Shown one piece after another: positions 4,194-57,701 of a DNA stretch of 64,000 nt. The DNA lies in NCBI GenBank assembly GCA_041652815.1, contig JBAZGN010000001.1, positions 573,855 through 637,854 of the forward strand. Direction: 5' to 3'. Below the pieces are notes generated by a model, which was given only the letters and a program-made list of their open reading frames with translations, was not told the origin of the DNA and did not search any database. This stretch comes from Candidatus Omnitrophota bacterium (GTDB lineage Bacteria; Omnitrophota; Gorgyraeia; Duberdicusellales; 4484-171). The translations under genes were made by a program, and so were the position numbers. Each line of letters begins with the position of its first letter. Within the stretch, counting starts at the first letter, position 1.

Positions 4194-4218
4194 TGCGCCT
4201 GGCAGGTGCATTTTGAAA

Positions 4219-4305
4219 CGCAGATGATCACAGATGACAGACGCAGATGATCACAGATGATTTTATCTGCGATCATTTGTTTTATAATCTGTGCTAATCT
4301 GTGTA
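4219..4305. promoter_or_regulatory. Promoter-region word repeat ('family A'): 2x ACGCAGATGATCACAGATGA direct repeat, then ATCTGCGATCA, TATAAT-like box and AATCTGTGCTAATCTGTGTAA just upstream of the RBS
   Basis: Direct tandem 20-mers seen in sequence. The tail motif AATCTGTGYTAATCTGTGTAA recurs upstream of the gene at 55891, and ATCTGTGATCATCTGTGTAA upstream of 16111 and 27938. Confidence 0.55.
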
Positions 4306-4321: not shown

Positions 4322-4507
4322 ATGGCGTTTCCAGGAAGAAAACCTTTTACAGAAAAATCAGCTTCTAAAATTGACGAAGTGAAGCTTAACCAGATGATAA
4401 GAGAAAGAGCTTATTACATTTGGGAAAGTAAAGGCAAACCGAAAGGTCAAGATCAAAAGATCTGGCTTCAGGCAGAAAAAGAGGTTTTGTCTAGAGTAAG
4501 GAGATAA
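4322..4507 (+). CDS. DUF2934 family small protein
   Basis: RAYYIWE..G.P.G.D...WLQAEKE signature. Strong RBS AGGAGGATAAA ahead of the ATG. Confidence 0.6.
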   Translation: MAFPGRKPFTEKSASKIDEVKLNQMIRERAYYIWESKGKPKGQDQKIWLQAEKEVLSRVRR

Positions 4508-6368: not shown

Positions 6369-6379
6369 ATAGTAAATAA

Positions 6380-6520
6380 AATCACAAATCACAATATACA
6401 AATTACAAACAATTTACAATAAACAATGACTAAAATTACAAATAGAAAGATATCTTTTCGGTATTGTGATTTTGTAATTGTTTATTGTTTGTAATTTGCG
6501 ATTTGGTAATTGTAATTTTT
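6380..6520. promoter_or_regulatory. Large imperfect inverted repeat built from ACAAATTACAAACAATTTACAATAAACAAT words, upstream of the cNMP-patatin gene
   Basis: Left arm ~6380-6425 is the reverse complement of right arm ~6460-6515. Confidence 0.5.
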
Positions 6521-6527
6521 AAAAAAT

Positions 6528-8405
6528 ATGGATATCAAAGAAGCGAAATTCATTTTAGCGAATACGTTGCCTTTTAATAAATTAAAAGAAGAAGAGATTG
6601 ACGAATTTTTAAGCATTTGCGAATTACGTAAATTGAGCCACGGAGAAATTTTATACAAAGACCAAGATCCCCCTGATTATTTTTATTTTTTATTGCGCGG
6701 AAGAATTGTTATTTTAAAGCAAGATGATATGCAAGAATCAGAAATAGAGCTTATAAAGAGAGGAACATCTTTTGGTATAATTTCTCTTTTTAACGAAGAG
6801 CCGCATTCAGTAACTACAAAATCAATAGAAGAGTCGTTCGTACTTAAAGCAGACAAAGAAAGGTTCAAGGATTTTTTAAATAAATACCCTTTAATTTCTT
6901 TGGAATTTTACAGAATACTTTCACAAAGGATACGTGCGCGTTCCGGAAAGAAAAAAATCTTTCAGTGTAAACGTATAGCCGTTATGGGCGCACATTTAAG
7001 CGGTAAAACCAGCTATATGTTTAACCTGGGAGTTAAATTAAAAGAGCAGACCCGCAAAAACGTAATATGTATTGAATTTAGTTCATCCGATAGTTTCGGC
7101 CTTGATAAACTTACGATTTACAGTAAAATACTTAACCTTGAAGATTATAAAGAAGAAACACTTAAAGATTACATAATAAAAAGTAATTTACAAAATAATA
7201 ATGAAATAGCTATTGATTGTCTTTTAGTAAAGATAAATGATATCCTTGAAATACCTTCTTTGCTTAATTTCCTTTCTGAAAATTATCATTTTATAATTTA
7301 CGAAATGCCGGATCAGTTCTTTGATACTAATGTGCAAAATTGTGTATCCCCGGTTGACTATTTTCATTTTCTTGTTTTACCCAACAAGGAAGGCGCGTTA
7401 AAAGCTGCTTCAGTGATAACAGCTCTCAACGAGGCTGATCCTTTAAGCATTGACAGGGTAAAAGTTATTTTGAGTTATTTTGCCGCGCAAGACCGTCTGC
7501 CGGCGAAAGACATAAAAGAAATTCTGCACGCGAATATCTACGCAACTTTGCCTTCGTTCGGTGAAGAGTACGTAAACGCGGTAAGAAGAATAAGCAAAGA
7601 GGTAGGTGAAGTAGTAATCGGGCTTGCTTTAGGAAGCGGCGGAGCATATGGTTTTGCCCACATAGGAGTATTAAGAGTGCTTGAGGAAAATCATATACCC
7701 ATAGATATTATATGTGGTTCAAGTATAGGCTCTGTCATCGCCAGCCTTTGGGCGCTTGGGAAAACTCCGGATGAAATTGAAAAGTTCATGATTGAATTTG
7801 CAAAGAAGCTAAATCTTTTTTCAGTTCGTGGTTTTTCTTTTCCTTTCAAGGGCTTGTGGCGTGCCAAATACCTGGAAAATATATTAAAAAAAGTCTTCAA
7901 AGATAAAACTTTCTACGATCTCAAACACCCGCTTAAAGTAGTTGTGTTCGATTTTTTAAGAAAAGAAGCGAAAATCTTGGAAGATGGCCCTCTTTATAAA
8001 GCTGTTGCTGCAAGTTGTGCTTTGCCTGGTGTTTTTGAGCCAATAAACTTTAAAAACAGAATGTTGCTTGATGGAGGGGTTTTAAATCCTTTGCCTACTA
8101 AAGTGCTTTTGAATTATGGCGCAGATAAAATAATAGCCGTAAATGTTACGCCTTCCCAGGAAGAAATTATTGAAGAATACGATAAAAAAAATAAATTTCA
8201 TATCCTTGATTTTATATTCGGAAGCATTGAAACAATGCAAAGGCAATTTATCGAACAGGCAGTAACTGTTGCTGATTGCGTCATACATCCAAATTTCGGC
8301 ACTTTACGCTGGCTTGAGTTTGAAAAAGTGCAGGATTTTATAAAGAAAGGCGAATTAGCTACCGTAAACAAACTGGATGAGTTAAAAAAGATGATTAATG
8401 TTTAA
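6528..8405 (+). CDS. Tri-domain protein: N-terminal cyclic-nucleotide-binding (CAP-type) domain + central degenerate MinD/ParA-like P-loop domain + C-terminal patatin-like phospholipase
   Basis: cNMP-binding fold at aa ~20-130. Central domain has IAVMGAHLSGKTS...NLG, a Walker A in a ParA/MinD-like context with the signature Lys replaced by Ala. Patatin motifs GLALGSGGAYGFAHIGVL (Gly-rich), GSSIGS (GxSxG) and LLDGG (DGA/G). Confidence 0.8.
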   Translation: MDIKEAKFILANTLPFNKLKEEEIDEFLSICELRKLSHGEILYKDQDPPDYFYFLLRGRIVILKQDDMQESEIELIKRGTSFGIISLFNEEPHSVTTKSIEESFVLKADKERFKDFLNKYPLISLEFYRILSQRIRARSGKKKIFQCKRIAVMGAHLSGKTSYMFNLGVKLKEQTRKNVICIEFSSSDSFGLDKLTIYSKILNLEDYKEETLKDYIIKSNLQNNNEIAIDCLLVKINDILEIPSLLNFLSENYHFIIYEMPDQFFDTNVQNCVSPVDYFHFLVLPNKEGALKAASVITALNEADPLSIDRVKVILSYFAAQDRLPAKDIKEILHANIYATLPSFGEEYVNAVRRISKEVGEVVIGLALGSGGAYGFAHIGVLRVLEENHIPIDIICGSSIGSVIASLWALGKTPDEIEKFMIEFAKKLNLFSVRGFSFPFKGLWRAKYLENILKKVFKDKTFYDLKHPLKVVVFDFLRKEAKILEDGPLYKAVAASCALPGVFEPINFKNRMLLDGGVLNPLPTKVLLNYGADKIIAVNVTPSQEEIIEEYDKKNKFHILDFIFGSIETMQRQFIEQAVTVADCVIHPNFGTLRWLEFEKVQDFIKKGELATVNKLDELKKMINV

Positions 8406-8614
8406 TCCCTTTTGCCAGAATTCCCTGCCCGCTCGCCCGCCCGCCGTACGGCGGACAGGGCTACGACCGCGGATGAATAGCGGAAAGGGGTGCCGTCCGC
8501 TTTAAGTGGGCGAAAGGAAAATAGCCCATGGCACGCCTGTCTACCAGGCTGAAAGCCTGTTGGACTGCCTTCGGCAGCCAGGCCAGTGCGGGCTCCAGAA
8601 AGGAAAGATTTATA

Positions 8615-11087: not shown

Positions 11088-11140
11088 AAAAATATATTAG
11101 CATTGAATTTTGAAAAATCAACTATATAATTGGTAAAAAG

Positions 11141-11200
11141 CCTTCAGTCGTCAGTCTTCAGCTATCAGCTGGAAGCTGAAGACTGATAGCTGAAAGCTGA
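11141..11200. repeat. Family B palindromic word repeat (cttcagtcgtcagtcttcagc ... gctgaagactgatagctgaaagctga)
   Basis: Nested inverted repeats seen directly. Upstream of the amrS-like gene. Confidence 0.6.
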
Positions 11201-12616: not shown

Positions 12617-12624
12617 ATTATGAG

Positions 12625-12765
12625 TTTAGATTACGGTTGCGTAAAGCGGTTGCGCCGCTCGTTACGCCTACCGTCTATCGGTTGCGTCTTAATGACGATG
12701 GACGATTGACGCAACCGAGACGAGTTGCGCAACCATAACCGAAAAACGCAACCGGAGCGCACAAT
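12625..12765. repeat. Word repeat 'family E' (GGTTGCG / CGCAACC / GACGATGGACGA words), shared with ~24500-24680
   Basis: The second copy sits in the ilvB-ilvN spacer. Both contain gacgatggacga and multiple gttgcg/cgcaacc inverted words. Confidence 0.5.
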
Positions 12766-15719: not shown

Positions 15720-15969
15720 AATAGTTATAATAATACAGTTTGGAGATTATTTTGCAATAGAAATATACAGCTGTCAGCCTTCAGCCGTCAGCTTTCAGTT
15801 CTATTTTTTTGCTGAAAGCCCCGCCACCTTATAAAAACATTTAAGCGGGTCAACCTGTTGGTTGAGAAGACTGATAGCTGACAGCTAGCCCAGAAAACCC
15901 TTGCAAAATAAAGGGGATTGTAATAAACTTTTGATACGCAGATGAGCACAGATTGGAAAGCGGACGATT

Positions 15970-16119
15970 ACAGATTTATTATTATCGTTTATGTACCACG
16001 TATCAGGTAACACGTAACAGGCCTTTACGGCGTGATACGTGTTACCTGATACGTGATACAGAATCTATGCTATCTGTGATCATCTGTGTAAGCCGAACGG
16101 AGTGAGGCAAATGAAATAT
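15970..16119. repeat. ~150-bp dispersed element, copy 1: 19-bp perfect palindrome CACGTATCAGGTAACACGT/ACGTGTTACCTGATACGTG, CTGTGATCATCTGTGTAA, RBS GGAGTGAGG and ATGAAATAT start
   Basis: ~94% identical to 27797..27946, mismatches concentrated in the right palindrome arm. Includes the first codons (MKY) of the downstream gene. Confidence 0.75.
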
Positions 16120-18701: not shown

Positions 18702-18775
18702 TAGTAGCACGTCGCATGTAACACGCATCAAGCCAAGGCGTGTTACTTGATACGTGTTACCTGATACGTGAACAA
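18700..18775. promoter_or_regulatory. Family A palindromic words upstream of cimA (GTAACACGCATCAAGCCAAGGCGTGTTAC hairpin + ACGTGTTACCTGATACGTG arm)
   Basis: Shares the exact 19-mer arm with the 15970 element. Confidence 0.55.
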
Positions 18776-20350: not shown

Positions 20351-20480
20351 ATCTTGAAATTTTAAATAACCAAGCTCCAATTTCCAATAACCAAAAAATA
20401 ACCAATAACCAAATTCTAATATCCAAAAAGATAAGAAAAAAATGTTTGGTTATTGATTATTGGGATTTATTTGGTTATTG
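20345..20480. promoter_or_regulatory. Inverted repeat of CCAATAACCAAA words
   Basis: ccaataaccaaaaaataaccaataaccaaa ... tttggttattgattattgg ... ttggttattgtatcttggttattgg. The listed ORF start at 20453 lies inside it. Confidence 0.5.
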
Positions 20481-20509
20481 TATCTTGGTTATTGGTCATT
20501 TTAAAAACT

Positions 20510-24498: not shown

Positions 24499-24685
24499 GG
24501 TACAGATGATTGCAGATAAAAGATAGTCGTCAAACGTTGCGGTTACCCGCCCACCGGAGGCGGGCGAGCTCGTCATGGTTGCGTTAAACGTAAGACGTCT
24601 GACGATGGACGAAACGAGTCGCACAACCGATTGACGTAAGACAATTTATGATATATTAATCTGTGTATGAGGAGCGAAGCGACGA

Positions 24686-25170: not shown

Positions 25171-26163
25171 ATGGCAAAGGTGTATTACGACAAAGATGCG
25201 GATTTGAATCTTTTAAAAGGAAAAACTATTGCAATCATCGGCTATGGTATACAAGGCCGCGGACAGGCATTATGCCTTCGCGATTCAGGCTGTAACGTTA
25301 TAGTATCAGAAATGCAAGGAACCCCTAATTACGAACAGGCAAAGAAAGACGGATTTAATCCTGTTTCAGCGAGCGAAGCCGCTAAAGAAGCCGATATAAT
25401 ACAAATTCTTACACAAGACCATGTGCAGGCAAAGGTTTATGGCGAAAGTATTAAAGCAAATTTGAAGAAAGGAAAAGCCCTTTGTTTTTCACATGGTTTT
25501 AATATACGTTTCAAGCAAATAAAGCCGCCTAAAAAAGTTGATGTATTTATGGTCGCGCCCAAAGGCCCGGGTGCTTTGGTTAGAAGAATGTATGAAGAAG
25601 GAAAAGGAGTCCCCTGCCTCGTTGCAGTACACCAGGATGCAACCGGACAGGCTAAGCAGATTGCACTAGCTTACGCAAAAGCAATCGGCGGAACACGTAT
25701 GGGTGTGATTGAAACTACTTTTGCCGAAGAAACTGAAACAGATTTATTCGGAGAGCAGGCAGTTCTCTGCGGCGGTGTTAGCGAAATGATTAAGGCGGGT
25801 TTTGATACTTTAATTGAAGCCGGATACCAGCCTGAAATTGCATATTTTGAGGTTTTGCATGAATTAAAGCTTATCACTGATTTAATCCAGGAGTACGGTA
25901 TAAGCGGAATGCGCCGCAGGGTTTCAAATACAGCTTGTTACGGTGATTTAACCAGAGGCCCGCGTATAATCAATGAAAGAACAAGAAAAGAAATGAAAAA
26001 AATTCTAAAAGAAATCAAGTCTGGAAAATTCGCCAAAGAATGGATTAAGGAAAATGAAACCGGAAGAGCAAATTTCGATAGTCTTTTAAAAGCCGGAGAT
26101 GGGCATAAGATTGAAGAAGTAGGTAAGCAGTTACGAGAAATGATGCCTTGGATGAAGAAATAA
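25171..26163 (+). CDS. ilvC: Ketol-acid reductoisomerase
   Basis: [14 protein letters not shown] Rossmann motif and KARI core. Confidence 0.9.
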
Positions 26164-26232
26164 ATAGCTATCAGCCATCAGTCGTCAGCCTTCAGTAGCT
26201 GACAGCTGAGAGCTGACAGCTGAGAGCTAAAA
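26164..26232. repeat. Family B palindromic word repeat between ilvC and leuA
   Basis: atagctatcagccatcagtcgtcagccttcagtagctgacagctgagagctgacagctgagagct. Confidence 0.6.
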
Positions 26233-27732: not shown

Positions 27733-27796
27733 TTTACGCAAATTACTGCGAATTAAGAAATTCCTGCCAGCCGGCGGGGATGTAAAGCTGATGGTC

Positions 27797-27946
27797 ACAG
27801 ATTTATTATTACCGTTTATGTACCACGTATCAGGTAACACGTAACAGGCCTTTACGGCGTGATACGTGTTACGTGCGACGTGATACAGAATTTATGCTAT
27901 CTGTGATCATCTGTGTAAGCCGAACGGAGTGAGGCGAATGAAATAT
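27797..27946. repeat. ~150-bp dispersed element, copy 2 (right palindrome arm degenerate)
   Basis: Aligns base-for-base with 15970..16119 with about 9 substitutions. Confidence 0.75.
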
Positions 27947-29325: not shown

Positions 29326-30168
29326 ATGCCTGAAATCCTGAGCCGAATATTGGTATTTATCTTAGGCAGCTGCGTAGGTAGCTTTCTAAATGTTTGTATC
29401 CACAGGCTCCCCAAGGATATATCTATAATTAAGCCGCGTTCTTTTTGCCCACATTGCAAACAAATGATACGCTGGTATGACAACATACCAATACTCAGTT
29501 ATTTAATATTAAAAGGAAAATGCCGCGCCTGCAATGCCGCAATTTCTCTAAGATACCCTTTCGTAGAACTCGTTACTGCCGTAATTTTTCTTGTCCTTTA
29601 CGCGCATTTTGGCCTTTGCTGGAATTTAATAAAATATCTTTTCTTCTTTTGCTTTCTTATAGTTGTTTCTTTCATAGATATAGATTATCACGCTATTCCC
29701 GCATATTTATGTTTTGTGGCGATTGCGGTTGGTTTGTTTTTTGATATAAGAGCGACAATCGTTTACTTAAAGGCAGGTATGCCTTTGGATTTTAAGTTTT
29801 TGCCAATATTTAGGGCTTTTAGGGCATTACTTTTCGGCTTAGGATTTACATATCTTTTTAAGCTGTTTGGTGATATATTCATTAACATATATCTTGCATT
29901 ACGCAAAAAAGAATCAATAGAAGGCGAGAAAGAATCTTTGGGGCTTGGTGATGTTGATTTTATGGGAGTGGTTGGAATTTTTCTTGGGATAAAAGCGGTT
30001 ATTTTCGTATTTTTCCTTGCTCCTTTTTTTGCGCTTCTTTATTCTGTTGTGGCAATGGTTTTTAAAAAATCGCACCTTATACCGTATTTACCTTATTTAT
30101 CCCTTGCATCTGTTGCTATGTTTTTTTGGGGAAACCATATAGTTAGATTTATAGGAATTGTTTTCTAG
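29326..30168 (+). CDS. pilD: Type IV prepilin peptidase (A24 family)
   Basis: N-terminal CxxC...CxxC zinc-binding box and polytopic membrane peptidase body. Confidence 0.8.
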   Translation: MPEILSRILVFILGSCVGSFLNVCIHRLPKDISIIKPRSFCPHCKQMIRWYDNIPILSYLILKGKCRACNAAISLRYPFVELVTAVIFLVLYAHFGLCWNLIKYLFFFCFLIVVSFIDIDYHAIPAYLCFVAIAVGLFFDIRATIVYLKAGMPLDFKFLPIFRAFRALLFGLGFTYLFKLFGDIFINIYLALRKKESIEGEKESLGLGDVDFMGVVGIFLGIKAVIFVFFLAPFFALLYSVVAMVFKKSHLIPYLPYLSLASVAMFFWGNHIVRFIGIVF

Positions 30169-30169
30169 A

Positions 30170-30262
30170 AGCGGATTCCCGCGGATAGCAACGCGGATTT
30201 ACGCAAGCGAGCTATGAGCGTTTATCCGCGTATAGATCCACGGATATCCGCCTCTACAGTGG
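30170..30262. promoter_or_regulatory. Word IR cluster (CGCGGAT / ATCCGCG words) upstream of aroC
   Basis: gcggattcccgcggatagcaacgcggattt ... tatccgcgtatagatccacggatatccgcc. Confidence 0.45.
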
Positions 30263-32397: not shown

Positions 32398-32535
32398 ATT
32401 AAAGAAGATACTTCGGACGCTCTTATTTATCGCGTCCTCAGTATCAATTCGCACTATCATTTTTTCTGCGCCACGCCCGCATAGCGGCGGTCAGGGCTTG
32501 AAAAAATGATGTGCCCATTGAGGAGGTGTTTAATG
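32398..32535. promoter_or_regulatory. Modular 5' leader, copy 1: conserved AAGATACTTCGGACGCTCTTAT(T/C)TATCGCGTCCTCAGTATCAATTCGC + variable long hairpin + conserved CATTGAGGAGGTGTTT RBS
   Basis: Same architecture at ~39056-39192 upstream of spoVG. The middle hairpins differ in sequence but each is a perfect ~10-bp stem. Confidence 0.6.
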
Positions 32536-34639: not shown

Positions 34640-34775
34640 AGGTAGTTATATCTAAAAAGTTACGGATGTTACGAAAATTACGTTAACCATTCCGCCGATG
34701 ACGGAATGGTTAAGTTACGAAGGTTACAATAAACTAAGTGTCTTAACGGTAACCTTCGTAACATATAATACGGGG
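34640..34775. promoter_or_regulatory. Two nested perfect hairpins of GTTACG/TAACC words (ttaaccattccgccgatgacggaatggttaa; ttacgaaggttac...gtaaccttcgtaa)
   Basis: Seen directly. Precedes RBS GGGGGAGGTG of the 34786 gene. Confidence 0.5.
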
Positions 34776-35199: not shown

Positions 35200-35329
35200 T
35201 TTTTTAGCTTATATCCATATTTTTGTTGAAAAAAATCTTGCAGGTAGTATCATTATCAAAGATATGGATATTTATTAGACTTTAAAGCGGCTCATATAAA
35301 TGAGCCGCTTTTTGTTTTTAAGACACAGA

Positions 35330-35412
35330 TGCTAATAATTTAGCAGATAGCGTTTAGCGTAGGGCGTGGAGAGACCTACTAAACGCTATCTGCTATACAC
35401 TAAACGCTATAA
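35330..35412. promoter_or_regulatory. Perfect 16-bp inverted repeat AGCAGATAGCGTTTAG / CTAAACGCTATCTGCT plus an extra CTAAACGCTAT copy
   Basis: Seen directly upstream of 35426. Confidence 0.5.
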
Positions 35413-39055: not shown

Positions 39056-39192
39056 TATTAAAGATACTTCGGACGCTCTTATTCATCGCGTCCTCAGTAT
39101 CAATTCGCGCATACAACTTATGTTCGCCCTGCCTGCCAGAGGCAGGCGTAGCTGCCATAAGTTGTGCGCTCATTGAGGAGGTGTTTGCTATG
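39056..39192. promoter_or_regulatory. Modular 5' leader, copy 2, upstream of spoVG
   Basis: Conserved 5' module and CATTGAGGAGGTGTTTGCTATG 3' module identical to copy 1. Variable central hairpin acaacttatg...cataagttgt with inner gcctgcc..ggcaggc. Confidence 0.6.
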
Positions 39193-43960: not shown

Positions 43961-44014
43961 AATTAATTTTTATTTTATATATCTAACACAAAAATCAACT
44001 TTCTTTTTAAGGCA

Positions 44015-44341: not shown

Positions 44342-44425
44342 TTTCTACCTGTCTTTCTTTAATTTTTTAATCTAACACAAAAATCAGCCGCTAATCCCGC
44401 CGGCTGGAATGAATTGTTAGAAATA

Positions 44426-44989: not shown

Positions 44990-45150
44990 ATAATATCACT
45001 AACGCGAATATTCGCGAATTTAAATCTTGATAGTTTTATTAAGGTATAAACGCGAATACACGCGAATGGAAAACAAGGCGAATAAGGTTATTCGCGGCCA
45101 TTTGCGTTACCTGCCCGCTGGTAGGCGGGGATTCGCGATAATTAGCGTAA
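44990..45150. promoter_or_regulatory. Word cluster of CGCGAATA units: perfect palindrome CGCGAATATTCGCG, ACGCGAATACACGCGAATGG, GCGAATAAGGTTATTCGC, CCCGCTGGTAGGCGGG
   Basis: Seen directly upstream of the radical SAM gene. The listed ORF start 45027 lies inside it. Confidence 0.5.
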
Positions 45151-48033: not shown

Positions 48034-49335
48034 TTATAGTTTCTTGTTCAATTCCCTTACAAAATTTTTTATTTCCCAGAAATCACGGATACTATTATTA
48101 CCATAAGCCGGCTTATAAAATCCGAAGATTGAATTATTTTGCAGCAGGGGTTCATTGAATTCTTTCGGATATTCTTCAAATAATGTTGTTCCCGGTACCG
48201 GAGAGAATTCAGCCAGAGAAACACGTGCTCCCAGAGAATTTAGGAATTCAACATCCTTTTTTAGGCTATCCAAATCCTGGTTAGGGAAACCAAGCAATAA
48301 ATAAACACTAAATTCGCCATCTTTAAATCCCGCAGCCTTAAGTAGTTTCAAGCCCTCAATGAGGTCATGCCTATTTACCTTATCACCCCAAAGTTTTTGC
48401 AGGGAAGGGTTTAGCGTTTCCAGGCCAAAATGCGGGTTGGTAAACCCGGTATTTTTTAAAAGTAAAGCCAGCTCACGGTCAAGAAATCTCAAGTGCAAAG
48501 CATTAGGGGTATGAAAATTAATGTTTAATTTCAATTCGTCGATTTTTCTAAGCACGCTTTTTGCGTAATCAGGTTCATAGAAAAAAGCATCGTCATAGAG
48601 CACGAAATCTTTTATTCCCTTTAAGGCGTATTTTCTGATGAAACTTACAATTTTTTCCTCAGGCAGCCTGAAAAATCCGGGAAAAAGTTTTTTTATCGCG
48701 CAGTAATTACAATCAAAGGGGCACCCCCAGGAAGTCCTTAGTGCCACATAGTCAAGTTTTGTGTAGAAATCTTCGTATACAGGAAGGTTTTCGTAAAGTT
48801 CAGTATAATTAAAATCTACGCCTAAAGTTTTAAAAAAGCCCTCTAAATTTTCATTACTGAATACAAAATCGCACCCGCTTGTTTTTTTCGCGTGGGCGTT
48901 GCATAAAGTTGCATAAGTGCCTCCCAGAATTATTTTTGCCGCCGGGAATTTTTTTCGCAGTATCTTTACCGCCTCAATTATTCCGGGATACCAGTAGGTC
49001 ATAGAGCTGGTTATGAGGATATAATCGAAATTTTTTCCCATAAGTTTTGTTTCAAAATCTTTCAGGTTTATTCCGTATCTTTTGAAATAGCGCGGTATGG
49101 ATTTAAATAGGTCGGGTTTTTTAACTATTTCGTTTGGGTATTTACCCCTGCCGAACGTTGCCTTGATTGTTTTTTCATCAAGGCAGTCTATGTAGTCTAT
49201 GTGTATGCCTTTTTCTTTGAGGTAATTAAGTATGACTAAAAAACCATAGGGTTTAAGCCAGAAATCATAAGCAGCGAAATCGTATATCCAGGGGTTAATT
49301 GCCAGCATATTCATAATGGTAAAGATCCTTGACAT
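48034..49335 (-). CDS. B12-binding-domain radical SAM protein (class B)
   Basis: N-terminal B12-binding-like region (ILITSSMTYWYPG...IILGG) and WGCPFDCNYC cluster. Confidence 0.7.
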   Translation of the reverse strand: MSRIFTIMNMLAINPWIYDFAAYDFWLKPYGFLVILNYLKEKGIHIDYIDCLDEKTIKATFGRGKYPNEIVKKPDLFKSIPRYFKRYGINLKDFETKLMGKNFDYILITSSMTYWYPGIIEAVKILRKKFPAAKIILGGTYATLCNAHAKKTSGCDFVFSNENLEGFFKTLGVDFNYTELYENLPVYEDFYTKLDYVALRTSWGCPFDCNYCAIKKLFPGFFRLPEEKIVSFIRKYALKGIKDFVLYDDAFFYEPDYAKSVLRKIDELKLNINFHTPNALHLRFLDRELALLLKNTGFTNPHFGLETLNPSLQKLWGDKVNRHDLIEGLKLLKAAGFKDGEFSVYLLLGFPNQDLDSLKKDVEFLNSLGARVSLAEFSPVPGTTLFEEYPKEFNEPLLQNNSIFGFYKPAYGNNSIRDFWEIKNFVRELNKKL

Positions 49336-49400
49336 TTACCTTAAAAAACATCAAAGTAAATGTCAAGGATTTAATTCGCACTATTATTTTTTCAAACTGT
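49336..49400. promoter_or_regulatory. Perfect 15-bp inverted repeat ATCCTTGACATTTAC / GTAAATGTCAAGGAT containing TTGACA, upstream of the B12-rSAM gene (minus strand)
   Basis: Seen directly. Candidate operator overlapping a -35-like hexamer. Confidence 0.45.
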
Positions 49401-49469
49401 TTGCCCCAGGTAAGCGCGCAGAAAAAACAATGTGCTCATTAAAATTATAACAGATATGGTATAATATTA

Positions 49470-49548
49470 AACTAATTTAGACCAAGGTTGAGGTTAAGGC
49501 TAAGGTTAAGTTAGGAATTTTAGCCTAAACCTCAACCTCAGCCTTAAC
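49470..49548. promoter_or_regulatory. Inverted repeat of GGTTAAGG/GAGGTTGAGG words (ggttgaggttaaggctaaggttaag ... cttaaacctcaacctcagccttaac) upstream of tilS
   Basis: Seen directly. Confidence 0.5.
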
Positions 49549-50547
49549 ATGGATGCAAAGATGGTAGAAGAAACTTTTAGAAATACAATTAAACGTTATA
49601 ATTTGCTGGAACGCAAAGACCGCTTAATGCTTGGGACCTCCGGCGGGCCGGATTCCATATTCATGCTTTACCAGTTTTATAGCTTAGCTAAAGAGTATAA
49701 ACTACAACTGGTTTGTGCACATTTTAATCATATGCTTCGGCCGGAAGCAGACAGTGAAGAAGAATTTGTAAAAAATATCTGTAAAGGCCTTGGAATAAAA
49801 TTCGTAGCCGAGAGAAAAGACGTTAATAAATTTTTTAAAGGCGATTCGCTTGAGCAAACTGCAAGAAATTTGCGGTTTGATTTTTTCCTAAATTCAAGCC
49901 GCCACTTTAAAATAAAGAAACTTGCTCTTGCGCATCATAAGGATGATCTCGTAGAAACCGTGCTTATGCGTATTATTAGAGGCACTGGCCTTAAGGGCCT
50001 TCGGGCATTTTTGCCTAAATCAAAATTCAGGAGTTTAACCATAATCAGGCCGCTTATTGAGCTGCATAAAAAAGATATCCTTAAGTGGCTGGAAAGTAAA
50101 AATATATCTTATTGTGTAGATAAAAGTAATTTTGAGGATAAGTTTCTGCGTAACCGTATAAGGCTTAAACTTATGCCACAGCTATGCGAAATTAACCCTA
50201 GCATAGCGCAAAATTTATATAATCTAAGCATTAATACAGCACTGGATTACGATTTTATTTATACATTTTCCCGCAAAGAGTTTGAGAAACTAAAAAGAGG
50301 AGAAACAAAAAGAGAAATAAAGCTTGATTTAGAAGGGCTTAAAAAAAACCACCCGGCTATACTTAACAATATAATAAGAATAGCAATTGAGGAATTAAAG
50401 GGAGATACGCGCAAGCTGGAGCTTAGGCATCTTGATGAAATAAAAGACCTGATTGAAAACAGGCCTTCCGGGAGTGTAGTCCATCTGCCCGGGCTTTCCG
50501 TCCGCAAAGAAGAAAAACGCCTCATTATACAAACCTTGATTTTATAA
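49549..50547 (+). CDS. tilS: tRNA(Ile)-lysidine synthetase
   Basis: PP-loop LGTSGGPDS. Confidence 0.8.
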   Translation: MDAKMVEETFRNTIKRYNLLERKDRLMLGTSGGPDSIFMLYQFYSLAKEYKLQLVCAHFNHMLRPEADSEEEFVKNICKGLGIKFVAERKDVNKFFKGDSLEQTARNLRFDFFLNSSRHFKIKKLALAHHKDDLVETVLMRIIRGTGLKGLRAFLPKSKFRSLTIIRPLIELHKKDILKWLESKNISYCVDKSNFEDKFLRNRIRLKLMPQLCEINPSIAQNLYNLSINTALDYDFIYTFSRKEFEKLKRGETKREIKLDLEGLKKNHPAILNNIIRIAIEELKGDTRKLELRHLDEIKDLIENRPSGSVVHLPGLSVRKEEKRLIIQTLIL

Positions 50548-55763: not shown

Positions 55764-55890
55764 TCGCAGAAGCAAAACAGATGATCGCAGATTTTGAGAA
55801 AGTATCATGTAACACGTCTTTAAAAACGTGTTACATGCTACGTGTGGCGTGATACGTAATCTGTGTTAATCTGTGTAAAGCAAAAATAAG
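55760..55890. promoter_or_regulatory. Family A repeat block (2x CAGATGATCGCAG; GTAACACGTCTTTAAAAACGTGTTAC hairpin; AATCTGTGTTAATCTGTGTAAAGC) upstream of nnrD, overlapping the acpS stop
   Basis: Seen directly. Confidence 0.55.
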
Positions 55891-56751
55891 ATGAAGCTGC
55901 CGAAACAACTAATAAAGCGTAAACTTGACACCTATAAAGGCGATTATGGTTATGTTTTTGTTTTGGGAGGCTCGCCGGGGCTAACCGGAGCAGTTTCTTT
56001 ATGCGCAAATGCCGCTTTAAGGATGGGCGCGGGTTTAGTAAGAGCAGCAGTTCCCGCATCCCTCGGTAATATACTCTCAACTAAACTTACAGAAGCGACA
56101 AGCCTTTTTCTTAACGAAGAAAATGGTTATCTTTCGGAAAAAGGCTTTCAGCAAATAACCGATTTGTTAGAAAGGATAGACGTAGTTGCTTTAGGTGGAG
56201 GAGCTTCTCAAGCTCCATGTGCTCAAAAGCTACTTTTAAAAGTAATTAAGAATGTCGACAAGCCAATGGTTATAGACGCAGATGCTTTAAACGCAATTTC
56301 TACTGTTTTAACCGTTTTGAAAGAAAGAAAATCAAAAAATATAGTTTTAACTCCGCATCTGGCTGAATTTTCCCGCTTAACCGGGCTTACGCTTAAAGCA
56401 ATAAAAGCAAAAAGAAAAGAACTTGTCAAGGAATTCGCTTTTAAGTATAATTTAACCCTCATTCTTAAGGGCAATCGCACCCTTGTAAGCAATGGCAAAA
56501 CGTTATTTGAAAATAATACCGGCAATCCCGGTATGGCAACAGCAGGTTGCGGCGATGTGTTGACAGGTATTATTGTCGGCTTAATGGCTCAAGGTATAGA
56601 TGTACTTACGGCAGCGAAGTTTGGGGTGTATATACACGGCTTAGCCGGTGATTTAGCTGCAAAAGATAAAACCGAAACCTGTTTGATTGCTTCCGATATA
56701 ATTGAGTATTTACCGAAAGCAGTAAAGAGATTAGCAACACGTAACACGTAA
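55891..56751 (+). CDS. nnrD: ADP-dependent NAD(P)H-hydrate dehydratase (YjeF C-terminal domain)
   Basis: KGDYGYVFVLGGSPGLTGA...GCGDVLTG motifs. Confidence 0.75.
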   Translation: MKLPKQLIKRKLDTYKGDYGYVFVLGGSPGLTGAVSLCANAALRMGAGLVRAAVPASLGNILSTKLTEATSLFLNEENGYLSEKGFQQITDLLERIDVVALGGGASQAPCAQKLLLKVIKNVDKPMVIDADALNAISTVLTVLKERKSKNIVLTPHLAEFSRLTGLTLKAIKAKRKELVKEFAFKYNLTLILKGNRTLVSNGKTLFENNTGNPGMATAGCGDVLTGIIVGLMAQGIDVLTAAKFGVYIHGLAGDLAAKDKTETCLIASDIIEYLPKAVKRLATRNT

Positions 56752-56863
56752 CAAGTAACACGTATCACGTTTCTAAAAACGTGTTACCTCCACTCCAAGT
56801 GGACTCACCTAAATATTTTTATATGGTGGCGAGGATACATGTGACGTGATACATGATAAATGC

Positions 56864-56936: not shown

Positions 56937-57144
56937 TTAAACACAGATGGTCACAGATTGGAAATCACAGATGAGCACAGATAGATTGTGTATCACGTCG
57001 CACGTAACACGTATCACGCCTTTTTAAATTCTCTGTTTATTCAATGACGTGTTACGTGATACCTGTTACCTGATACTTTCTCAAATCTGTGATCATCTGT
57101 TTTGTAAATCTGTGATTATCTGTGCAAAACGATCTGTGAAAAAC

Positions 57145-57587: not shown

Positions 57588-57701
57588 TTTAGTCCATAGT
57601 CGACAGTTAATAGTCCACAGAATTAAACTATGGGCTATGGTCTATTGACTGTGGACTATTTATGCTTTAATAACTATCACAAATAAAGAAGAGGAGAAGA
57701 G

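Follow-up and report, generated by a model that had tools for sequence, protein, structure and literature searches.

The window analyzed here is a 64,000-nucleotide (nt) chromosome fragment of a Candidatus Omnitrophota bacterium with a housekeeping gene content, including glycogen enzymes, ilvBNC, leuA, aroC, aroE, aspartokinase, phosphoglycerate mutase, tilS, ftsH, folP, pdxJ and tRNA genes. At gathering score, an Rfam search of the whole window returned five tRNAs and no other family. The elements in question lie in the spacers between these genes, where short words, mainly heptanucleotides (heptads), are iterated in direct and often also in inverted orientation, and where they may have arisen in place by slippage and inverted duplication. 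The focal hairpin (6378-6519) is placed between a GH1 gene (stop 6368) and a gene for a cNMP-patatin protein (ATG 6528). It spans 142 nt with 51 predicted pairs and a folding energy of -35.3 kcal/mol (z -4.9 to -5.3; fold z compares folding energy with dinucleotide shuffles throughout). Its left arm is a run of ACAAATN/AATCACA heptads and its right arm consists of their reverse complements, the two arms being 73-77% complementary. Tandem Repeats Finder (TRF) reports AAATCAC in 4.4 copies (6379-6409) and TTTGTAA in 5 (6488-6522) at this site.

The window was compared with 83 other Omnitrophota loci. Three of these, in metagenome-assembled genomes (MAGs; L001-L003), encode syntenic relatives of the cNMP-patatin protein (6528-8405) with 89%, 78% and 63% identity, and 80 metagenome contigs (L081-L160) encode relatives of IlvC (25171-26163) with 83-98% identity. 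A further 66 unrelated loci served as controls.

Hairpins of the focal type are frequent in the window. Of its 38 spacers of at least 60 nt, 17-20 contain a hairpin well beyond shuffled sequence in stability: 17, or about half, fold with z of -3.5 or below, and a few more are masked by over-extended open reading frame (ORF) calls. An earlier note, made from the sequence alone, had described nearly every spacer as built from iterated direct and inverted words; the structures are real, but they occupy about half of the spacers. Significant folds range in z from about -4 to -12, and their arms consist of iterated words. The predicted folds are regular, with helices of 5-6 bp split by 1x1 or 2x2 internal loops (as at 26165-26229 and, with another word, in L147). 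Inverted 7-mers are in strong excess in about 13 spacers and direct 7-mers in about 9. The comparison with shuffled sequence that the note had named as its own refutation test thus went in its favor, as direct 7-mers, inverted 7-mers and fold stability all exceed dinucleotide shuffles. These same controls rule out chance as the origin of the structures. An assembly artefact is likewise ruled out, because the same architecture, sometimes with the same word at the same site, is found in independent assemblies of many samples.

Most of the sites singled out in the earlier note, namely the focal one and those beginning near 12625, 20345, 30170, 34640, 35330, 44990 and 49470, are significant hairpins. 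Two are exceptions: the element at 24500-24680 does not fold beyond expectation, yet is a homologue of that at 12634-12754, and 43961/44375 is a direct word in two copies with a promoter-like character. The latter word, TGATTTTTGTGTTAGAT, occurs on the minus strand at 43961-43980 and 44375-44395, in each case about 30 nt before a gene that starts with ATGGCG; the two genes are in tandem and of unknown function. It resembles a shared extended -10 promoter, and none of the 160 fetched loci contains it.

A period of seven nucleotides, which had escaped the earlier note, unites most of the arrays. In the pooled intergenic DNA of the window, sequence identity peaks only at lags 7, 14 and 21 (z 9.4, 9.6 and 4.4). 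For the 80 relatives, 43 kb of intergenic sequence yield a lag-7 z of 14.0, while in the 66 unrelated loci the signal is absent on average (mean z 0.74). Sliding windows with a high lag-7 signal are all intergenic except for one low-complexity coding stretch. Likewise, 128 of the 233 intergenic arrays called with TRF have a period of 7, 14 or 21 (84, 39 and 5, respectively), with higher-order units of 14 nt present among them, whereas coding arrays have periods of 9, 12 or 6. The words CACAGAT, GCGGAT and CGCGAAT are spaced by 10-12 nt in place of 7. Chained reverse-complement heptads within 150 nt accompany 32 of 66 arrays, compared with 0 of 66 for a reversed-word control.

Variation among the units of an array is confined mainly to one or two of the seven heptad columns (z 7.5; by a conservative count of events z 2.4, p ~0.015), and in 29 of 66 arrays a single column holds three or four different bases. 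An example is L157 5342-5372, which reads ACCATTG ACCATCG ACCATGG ACCATAG, with the remaining columns invariant. Where two columns vary they are adjacent in 21 of 51 cases, which does not differ significantly from the one third expected (p 0.15).

Some of the control loci have heptad arrays of their own. Three Bacteroidota loci, from one MAG and two Pedobacter (L068 892-996 and 8469-8587; L077 12748-13342; L079 12758-13022), contain adjoining degenerate heptads such as TTGATAC, AAAGTTG, GGTTTAC and TTCACTA, with a lag-7 z of about 8. Inverted partners were found for 9 of 23 control arrays, a count that covers the control loci as a whole, from other phyla, with only part of the arrays coming from these three.

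At least 12 different words are present in the 64 kb, and at least 20 across the clade. The elements of the window, apart from the focal hairpin, are as follows.

2088-2143: TCAGNNN heptads in a hairpin that fills a 63-nt spacer with a GH57 gene on either side; z -5.7.
4218-4304: hairpin of CACAGAT words spaced by 10-11 nt, upstream of the Shine-Dalgarno (SD) site and small ORF of a DUF2934 protein (4322-4507); z -7.5.
11139-11198: TCAGNNN heptad hairpin, beginning 8 nt past a conserved TTGAAT-16-TATAAT promoter and ending 4 nt short of ATG 11203; z -7.2.
12634-12754: GGTTGCG/GACGATGGACGA element upstream of a NUDIX gene (true ATG 12764); z -4.9.
15770-15885: TCAGNNN-armed hairpin between two divergent promoters; z -8.0.
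15935-16090: composite of outer CACAGAT arms around a GTAWCAS heptad hairpin, between a conserved promoter and the SD site and ATG 16111; z -11.4.
18704-18772: hairpin of GTAWCAS heptads; the true ATG (18776) follows 3 nt after its end.
20360-20506: hairpin of CCAATAA heptads, likewise 3 nt short of the true ATG (20510); z -5.3.
24529-24642: second GGTTGCG/GACGATGGACGA copy, in the ilvB-ilvN spacer; fold not significant, z -1.5.
26165-26229: TCAGNNN heptad hairpin filling the ilvC-leuA spacer, with 5-bp helices and 2x2 internal loops; z -5.8.
27787-27914: second CACAGAT and GTAWCAS composite, upstream of ATG 27938; z -5.1.
30166-30256: hairpin of GCGGAT words spaced by 10-12 nt, upstream of the aroC SD site; z -4.7.
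34683-34713 and 34714-34762: a TTAACCATTCCG hairpin and, next to it, a GTTACGAAGGTTAC hairpin, with a conserved leader on one side of the pair and the SD site on the other; z -4.9 and -5.8.
35341-35395: AGCAGATAGCGTTTAG hairpin upstream of an SD site, preceded by a canonical terminator (35284-35311) and a -10-like box, TGCTAATAAT; z -5.0.
44999-45145: CGCGAAT-word structure in a divergent spacer; z -5.1.
49485-49538: GGTTAAG/GGTTGAG hairpin between a TGGTATAAT box and ATG 49549 (tilS); z -5.6.
55772-55881: GTAACAC hairpin combined with CACAGAT arms into a composite, upstream of ATG 55891; z -5.2.
56736-56790: five direct GTAACAC-type heptads with a short inverted partner behind them, located downstream of stop 56751; z about -2.6 to -3.
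56942-57124: composite hairpin of 183 nt (CACAGAT outer and GTAWCAS inner arms) between tRNA-Thr and tRNA-Tyr; 68 pairs, z -8.2.
57622-57660, plus strand: direct CTATGGN heptad array after tRNA-Gly.

Two details of these elements can be added. In the CACAGAT family (4218-4304, 15935-15960, 16068-16090, 56942-57124), GATC recurs every 10-11 nt (TGATCACAGATGATCACAGAT), or about once per turn of the DNA helix. The DUF2934 ORF (4322-4507, 61 amino acids) is conserved in L001 and L002 and lies inside what a list of ORFs of at least 80 amino acids presents as a "spacer" of 478 nt.

The earlier note had called the words private to their spacers, and many are indeed confined to a single site in the window. 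Within it, TCAGNNN recurs in 4-5 spacers, GTAWCAS in 5-6 and CACAGAT in 5 (often as outer arms around a GTAWCAS hairpin), while GGTTGCG/GACGATGGACGA is found in two window spacers and in one non-orthologous spacer of L003; the remaining words are single-site. TAGCGNN arrays are also present in L002 and L088, and the GGTTAAG/GGTTGAG family appears at other sites in L082, L083 and L138. By strict pattern matching, GTAWCAS in three copies, GCGGAT in three copies and GTTACGAAGGTTAC are absent from the 83 other Omnitrophota loci. A loose pattern for the TTCGCAC...GTGCTCATT family returned mostly false matches.

Comparison of orthologous spacers, a check proposed in the earlier note, reveals that words differ or vanish where the flanking genes are 80-93% identical. 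Relative to L081-L084 (80-86% nucleotide identity), promoters, SD sites and one canonical terminator are conserved, and the word hairpins are lineage-specific additions between these conserved signals. The GH1-patatin spacer, home to the ACAAATN hairpin in the window, contains a TTCCAAAT hairpin in L001 and one of GGTTGCG type in L003; in L002 it is just 36 nt long. The 2088-2143 site holds the TCAGNNN family in L001 as well, and at the 11139-11198 site the promoter is kept in L002 and L003 with different elements downstream. The hairpin at 15770-15885 and the pair at 34683-34762 are absent in L081-L083. In place of the composite at 15935-16090, L082 and L083 have a GGTTAAG hairpin and L081 has no element, while the site of the second composite (27787-27914) is a stop-to-ATG spacer of 11 nt in L082 and L083. 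The GTAWCAS hairpin at 18704-18772 is replaced by a TCAGNNN hairpin in L082 and L083, and the CCAATAA hairpin at 20360-20506 by a CTAGATN hairpin in L084, with none in L081-L083. The ilvB-ilvN spacer contains a CACAGAT element in L081 and a hairpin of AAAATCA heptads in both L082 and L084. Hairpins differ even between L082 and L083, which are 93% identical overall: some are reshuffled, some are longer or shorter by one 7-nt unit and some are missing. Differences of a single 7-nt unit also separate arrays of the window from those of L001.

The ilvC-leuA spacer documents this turnover most fully. Relatives provide 69 distinct versions built on at least 10 different words, comprising 12 heptad hairpins, 10 direct heptad arrays and 27 other strong hairpins, along with 10 spacers shorter than 25 nt, 5 longer than 400 nt and 5 with no such structure. 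An array or strong hairpin is therefore present in 49 of the 54 versions of 25-400 nt. Two further comparisons bear on how arrays grow. At the site of 30166-30256, L083 has a single AAGCGGAT...ATCCGCTT pair where the window has three to four GCGGAT pairs, which indicates growth in place. Also, a direct TTCATAG array in L129 is matched in L147 by the same array plus an inverted arm.

A repetition of another kind is found near the same spacer. In L155 (11015-11316), and also in L151, L138, L141, L142 and L157, the end of ilvC, made up of its last codons and the stop (ATGCCNTGGATGAARAARTAR), recurs two or three times. A hairpin of about 70 nt, rich in G+C, precedes every copy in L155 and L151, a pattern suggestive of tandem duplications across the stop codon.

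The position of the elements relative to genes is also specific. Hairpins typically sit between a -10 box and the SD site or ATG, or fill a stop-to-start spacer. They occur in 46% of co-directional, 40% of divergent and 17% of convergent spacers (convergent 3 of 18, others 122 of 265; p 0.015). Relative to the upstream stop codon, 37 of 118 arrays start between -10 and +3 nt, and 20 of the 118 overlap the stop itself. Among the consensus words of 84 period-7 arrays (window, L001-L003 and L081-L160), 61 contain a stop codon on the sense strand, where 46 are expected and 44 are found on the antisense strand; an array of such heptads has stops in all three frames.

This placement affects gene annotation, as the earlier note had foreseen when it warned of over-extended N-termini. 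Seven conserved ATG starts (12764, 16111, 18776, 20510, 27938, 32533 and 39190) lie downstream of longest-ORF starts (12725, 16102, 18740, 20453, 27929, 32506 and 39031) that fall within repeat structures. Furthermore, the Pfam match of SpoVG begins only at residue 61 of the long ORF.

Intrinsic terminators were considered and rejected as an identity for the hairpins. A terminator scan of the scanned regions places canonical sense-strand terminators elsewhere (35284-35311) and not at the word hairpins, which are followed by T runs only at 6378-6519 and 20360-20506 and are least frequent in convergent spacers. The terminator at 35284-35311 itself lies about 30 nt after a promoter-like TTGAAA-16-TATCAT sequence (10 of 12 matches). 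This unit (35226-35311) is conserved in L081-L083 and is a candidate small RNA or leader.

Taken at a probability of about one half, the best explanation is that these elements are hypervariable heptanucleotide slippage arrays with inverted duplication, which 5′ leaders and intercistronic spacers tolerate or in which they are of mild use as stem-loops independent of sequence. Under this scheme, arrays of mainly heptanucleotide words, and some of 10-12 nt, would arise in place in the non-coding spacers of this Omnitrophota lineage. Replication slippage would duplicate a unit of 7 nt, which in many cases overlaps the stop codon upstream, and strand switching (fold-back synthesis) would then make an inverted copy of the array nearby. 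The arms would later diverge independently through further slippage. Such independent evolution would retain only the core word and so produce a long imperfect hairpin with 5-6-bp helices and regular mismatches. A few composite versions would then be copied to other spacers of the same genome. A stem-loop between a -10 box and the SD site or start, or between a stop and the next start, would leave neighboring signals undisturbed, and it may act generically and independently of its sequence, for example by protecting mRNA ends.

The state of the arms fits this description. The two arms have only the core word in common, and the identity between the left arm and the reverse-complemented right arm (0.839) is unchanged when units are permuted (0.844), so there is neither covariation between arms nor copying in register. 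Slippage or template switching was one of two origins that the earlier note had offered, and it gains indirect support from the period of 7, the differences in unit number, the growth in place and the overlap with stop codons. Formation and correction of quasipalindromes by intramolecular template switching are said to go back to work by Ripley in 1982 and by Lovett and co-workers. The likeness lies in a replication error that makes or perfects inverted repeats, and by analogy it would explain an inverted arm beside a direct array. In E. coli, however, this mechanism is known for point-mutation hotspots and is not known as a source of repeat hairpins of 50-150 nt.

Several observations weigh against this explanation. 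The concentration of unit variation in one or two of seven columns may reflect constraint on a core of 5-6 nt or some bias in the mechanism, and plain neutral slippage predicts neither. Among the indels that separate close relatives, a length of 7 nt does not stand out (15, against 24 at 6 and 18 at 8), most arrays being unalignable. The rarity of hairpins in convergent spacers and the excess of sense-strand stops suggest selection or a link to transcription or translation. The 49 of 54 ilvC-leuA spacers with an array or hairpin could mean that hairpins are wanted and not merely tolerated. Finally, some families, namely the composites (15935, 27787) and GGTTGCG, resemble dispersed elements. 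Each of the three readings considered next, mobile elements, selected RNA and heptad operators, may possibly apply to a subset of the hairpins.

According to the first, the elements are miniature mobile elements, similar to miniature inverted-repeat transposable elements (MITEs), to doublets of repetitive extragenic palindromic (REP) sequences known as REPINs or to BOX elements, and were spread by a transposase or by recombination, with the different words at one site representing independent insertions. This is unlikely overall. In its favor, the composites at 15960-16110 and 27790-27937 are about 95% identical over 150 nt at non-orthologous sites, and both are missing from the orthologous sites of L081-L083. 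Similarly, the GGTTGCG/GACGATGGACGA element (12617-12765) aligns over about 130 nt with 24520-24650 and with a non-orthologous site in L003 (200-355). TCAGNNN, GGTTAAG, CACAGAT and TAGCGNN occur at different sites of several genomes, and presence or absence differs at orthologous sites. Yet occupied and empty orthologous spacers display no target-site duplication, clean boundary or terminal inverted repeats independent of the arrays, and the composites are the only near-identical pair in the window. The second composite copy adjoins ATGAAATA, which is native to both genes, a situation that fits copying guided by microhomology and not transposition. Moreover, many arrays derive from local sequence, the neighboring stop codon included, the GCGGAT case is an expansion in place, and triplicate GTAWCAS is found in 0 of the 83 other Omnitrophota loci. 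No transposase or REP-associated tyrosine transposase (RAYT) gene is present among the window proteins scanned.

A more doubtful proposal is that the hairpins are selected RNA elements of the sense transcript, which protect mRNA ends, provide processing sites or couple a stop or 5′ end to the next start, with iterated words as the easiest route to build them. It draws on their location between -10 box and SD site or ATG or across stop-to-start spacers, their scarcity in convergent spacers, the separateness of canonical terminators and the occupancy of 49 of the 54 ilvC-leuA spacers of 25-400 nt; the imperfect arms would also speak against cruciform extrusion. The signatures of a selected RNA stem-loop, compensatory changes and a sense bias with G.U pairs, are lacking in these hairpins. 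Paired units vary without compensation, and in the window there is no strand asymmetry (G.U pairs 57 versus 57). An apparent sense bias in 87 spacers (G.U 468 versus 302, p 0.0008) proved to be an effect of composition, since the excess stability over shuffles of the same strand is equal on both strands (-20.1 kcal/mol sense and -20.4 antisense, p 0.63). In addition, one hairpin (15770-15885) lies between two divergent promoters, and ten relatives manage with an ilvC-leuA spacer of less than 25 nt.

The remaining origin offered by the earlier note, a large repertoire of dedicated DNA-binding regulators, corresponds to a third reading, in which the heptads would be operators. Their 7-bp units, direct and inverted, would be bound cooperatively, as WATCACW is by the omega repressor, a ribbon-helix-helix (RHH) protein, or the arrays would be bound by a single-strand-binding protein with a footprint of about 7 nt. 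Direct and inverted heptad arrays are established for omega of pSM19035, and its operators, like the present arrays, string together 7-bp units whose core is conserved and whose edges vary, in both orientations and near promoters (PMC9499535, PMC2441792). Arrays here have at least two consecutive 7-bp units with a conserved core of 5-6 nt and one or two variable positions, direct or inverted; the word but not the variable positions is common to both arms; many arrays lie directly downstream of -10 boxes; and the focal arm opens with AATCACA AATCACA, which fits WATCACW. However, omega operators involve one word, one protein and a few plasmid promoters (PMC9499535, PMC2441792), while dozens of words are found in these chromosomes, and the words in the window and the clade would require equally many proteins. 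The window contains three nucleic-acid-binding proteins, and none of the window proteins scanned is a dedicated regulator or has an RHH domain. The genes that follow hairpins (GH57, phosphoglycerate mutase, ilvN, leuA, aroC, tilS and tRNAs) are unrelated in function and define no regulon, elements also lie between tRNA genes and within operons, and words at housekeeping operons are swapped or lost between genomes 80-93% identical. Gene content, word turnover and the number of words thus leave the regulator reading unsupported, with a slim chance.

Least probable is a distinct class of sequence-independent cis-element, or a dedicated heptad-generating activity common to some Bacteroidota, cyanobacteria and Beggiatoaceae, which would write a 5-6-nt core plus a hypervariable position repeatedly and in both orientations next to stop and start codons, loop out the spacer so that a stop or mRNA 5′ end stands beside the next start and supply stops in three frames; if true, the element would set translational coupling and mRNA stability genome-wide.

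Cyanobacterial short tandemly repeated repetitive (STRR) sequences were reportedly described as heptanucleotide tandem repeats by Mazel et al. in 1990. Among the long simple repeats of many bacteria, those of heptanucleotides are noted as the most common, and slippage of the polymerase is the proposed cause, in an account summarized in later papers (Mrazek 2007, via PMC4679880, PMC4692102), and TTGTCAG/CTGAC heptamer words have been described in a Nostoc spacer (PMC2408588). The arrays studied here resemble such repeats in their 7-nt unit, intergenic location, several words per genome, degenerate copies, unknown function and proposed slippage origin; head-to-tail 7-nt copies exceed chance and are confined to non-coding DNA. 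They differ in that about half have an inverted partner, such that the whole spacer is one hairpin, in their many more words and in the documented turnover at orthologous sites. TAACTGA repeats of marine Beggiatoaceae, some cyanobacteria and Bacteroidetes are also stop-bearing heptamers, present in 2-6 copies directly upstream of the starts of unrelated, including essential, genes, often without a canonical SD site (PMC4679880). They comprise a single word with 169 direct sets and one inverted set (PMC4679880), in contrast to the many words and frequent inverted pairs of this clade. The GGGAATC/GGGGAYT repeats of Xanthomonas and Nostoc are similar in that they are intergenic heptads in which some positions are conserved and others vary, form inverted pairs now and then and differ greatly in length and sequence between orthologous spacers of related species, but they are G-rich, proposed to form quadruplexes and limited to one word per genus (PMC4692102). 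The words reported here are not G-rich.

REP sequences lie mostly at the 3′ ends of genes. Together with bacterial interspersed mosaic elements (BIMEs) and REPINs, they share with the present elements imperfect palindromes in spacers, hairpin-forming doublets, several families per genome and dispensability at any one site (PMC3116915, PMC3733652). Unlike the elements of the window, REPs are units of 20-40 nt that exist as hundreds of almost identical copies, begin with a GTAG or CGTC head and are accompanied by a RAYT transposase (PMC3116915, PMC3733652). Here the arms are internally repetitive, the copies differ from one another, convergent spacers are avoided and the listed or aligned arms have no common head motif. 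Nor do the elements display the terminal inverted repeats with target-site duplication, or the clean empty sites in relatives, by which MITEs are recognized.

Other conserved or dispersed sequences were noted alongside the arrays. A leader module is present at 32408-32532 and 39063-39189, in a partial copy at 49375-49440 and in L002 at 1157-1285. Its order is GATACTTCGGACGC...GCGTCCTCAGTATC, AATTCGCRC, a variable hairpin, GYGCYCATT, GAGGAGG and ATG. Flanks of the form TTCGC...GCTCAT enclose different complementary stems in L082, L104, L130, L138, L140, L142 and L157. The module is a candidate structured RNA or element and has no match in Rfam; for 49330-49560, a permissive Rfam search gave only sub-threshold matches, nearly all to models of miRNA precursors. 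Another dispersed family is the G+C-rich element TCCCTTTTGCCAGAATTCCCTGCCCGC ... GCTTTAAGYGGGCGAA at 8406-8527 (63% G+C), L081 2378-2579 and L082 7512-7667, which occupies non-orthologous spacers of related genomes.

Heptanucleotide intergenic repeats as such are already known. A literature search on Omnitrophota repeats found no report, and the novelty lies in the phylum, in the large number of different words, in their systematic arrangement as hairpins and in the turnover documented here. For annotation, gene callers over-extend N-termini into the arrays, and motif finders will report spurious "regulons". The ilvC-leuA spacer, with dozens of independent natural variants at one site, provides a comparative system in which slippage, protein binding and RNA function can be pitted against each other. 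The arrays also sharpen the heptanucleotide puzzle: why seven, why beside start codons and why a conserved core. If slippage with inverted duplication is indeed their source, most of the "extra" intergenic DNA in this clade would come from one repeat-generating process and not from foreign insertion or regulatory sites, and such spacers would be among the fastest-evolving parts of the genome.

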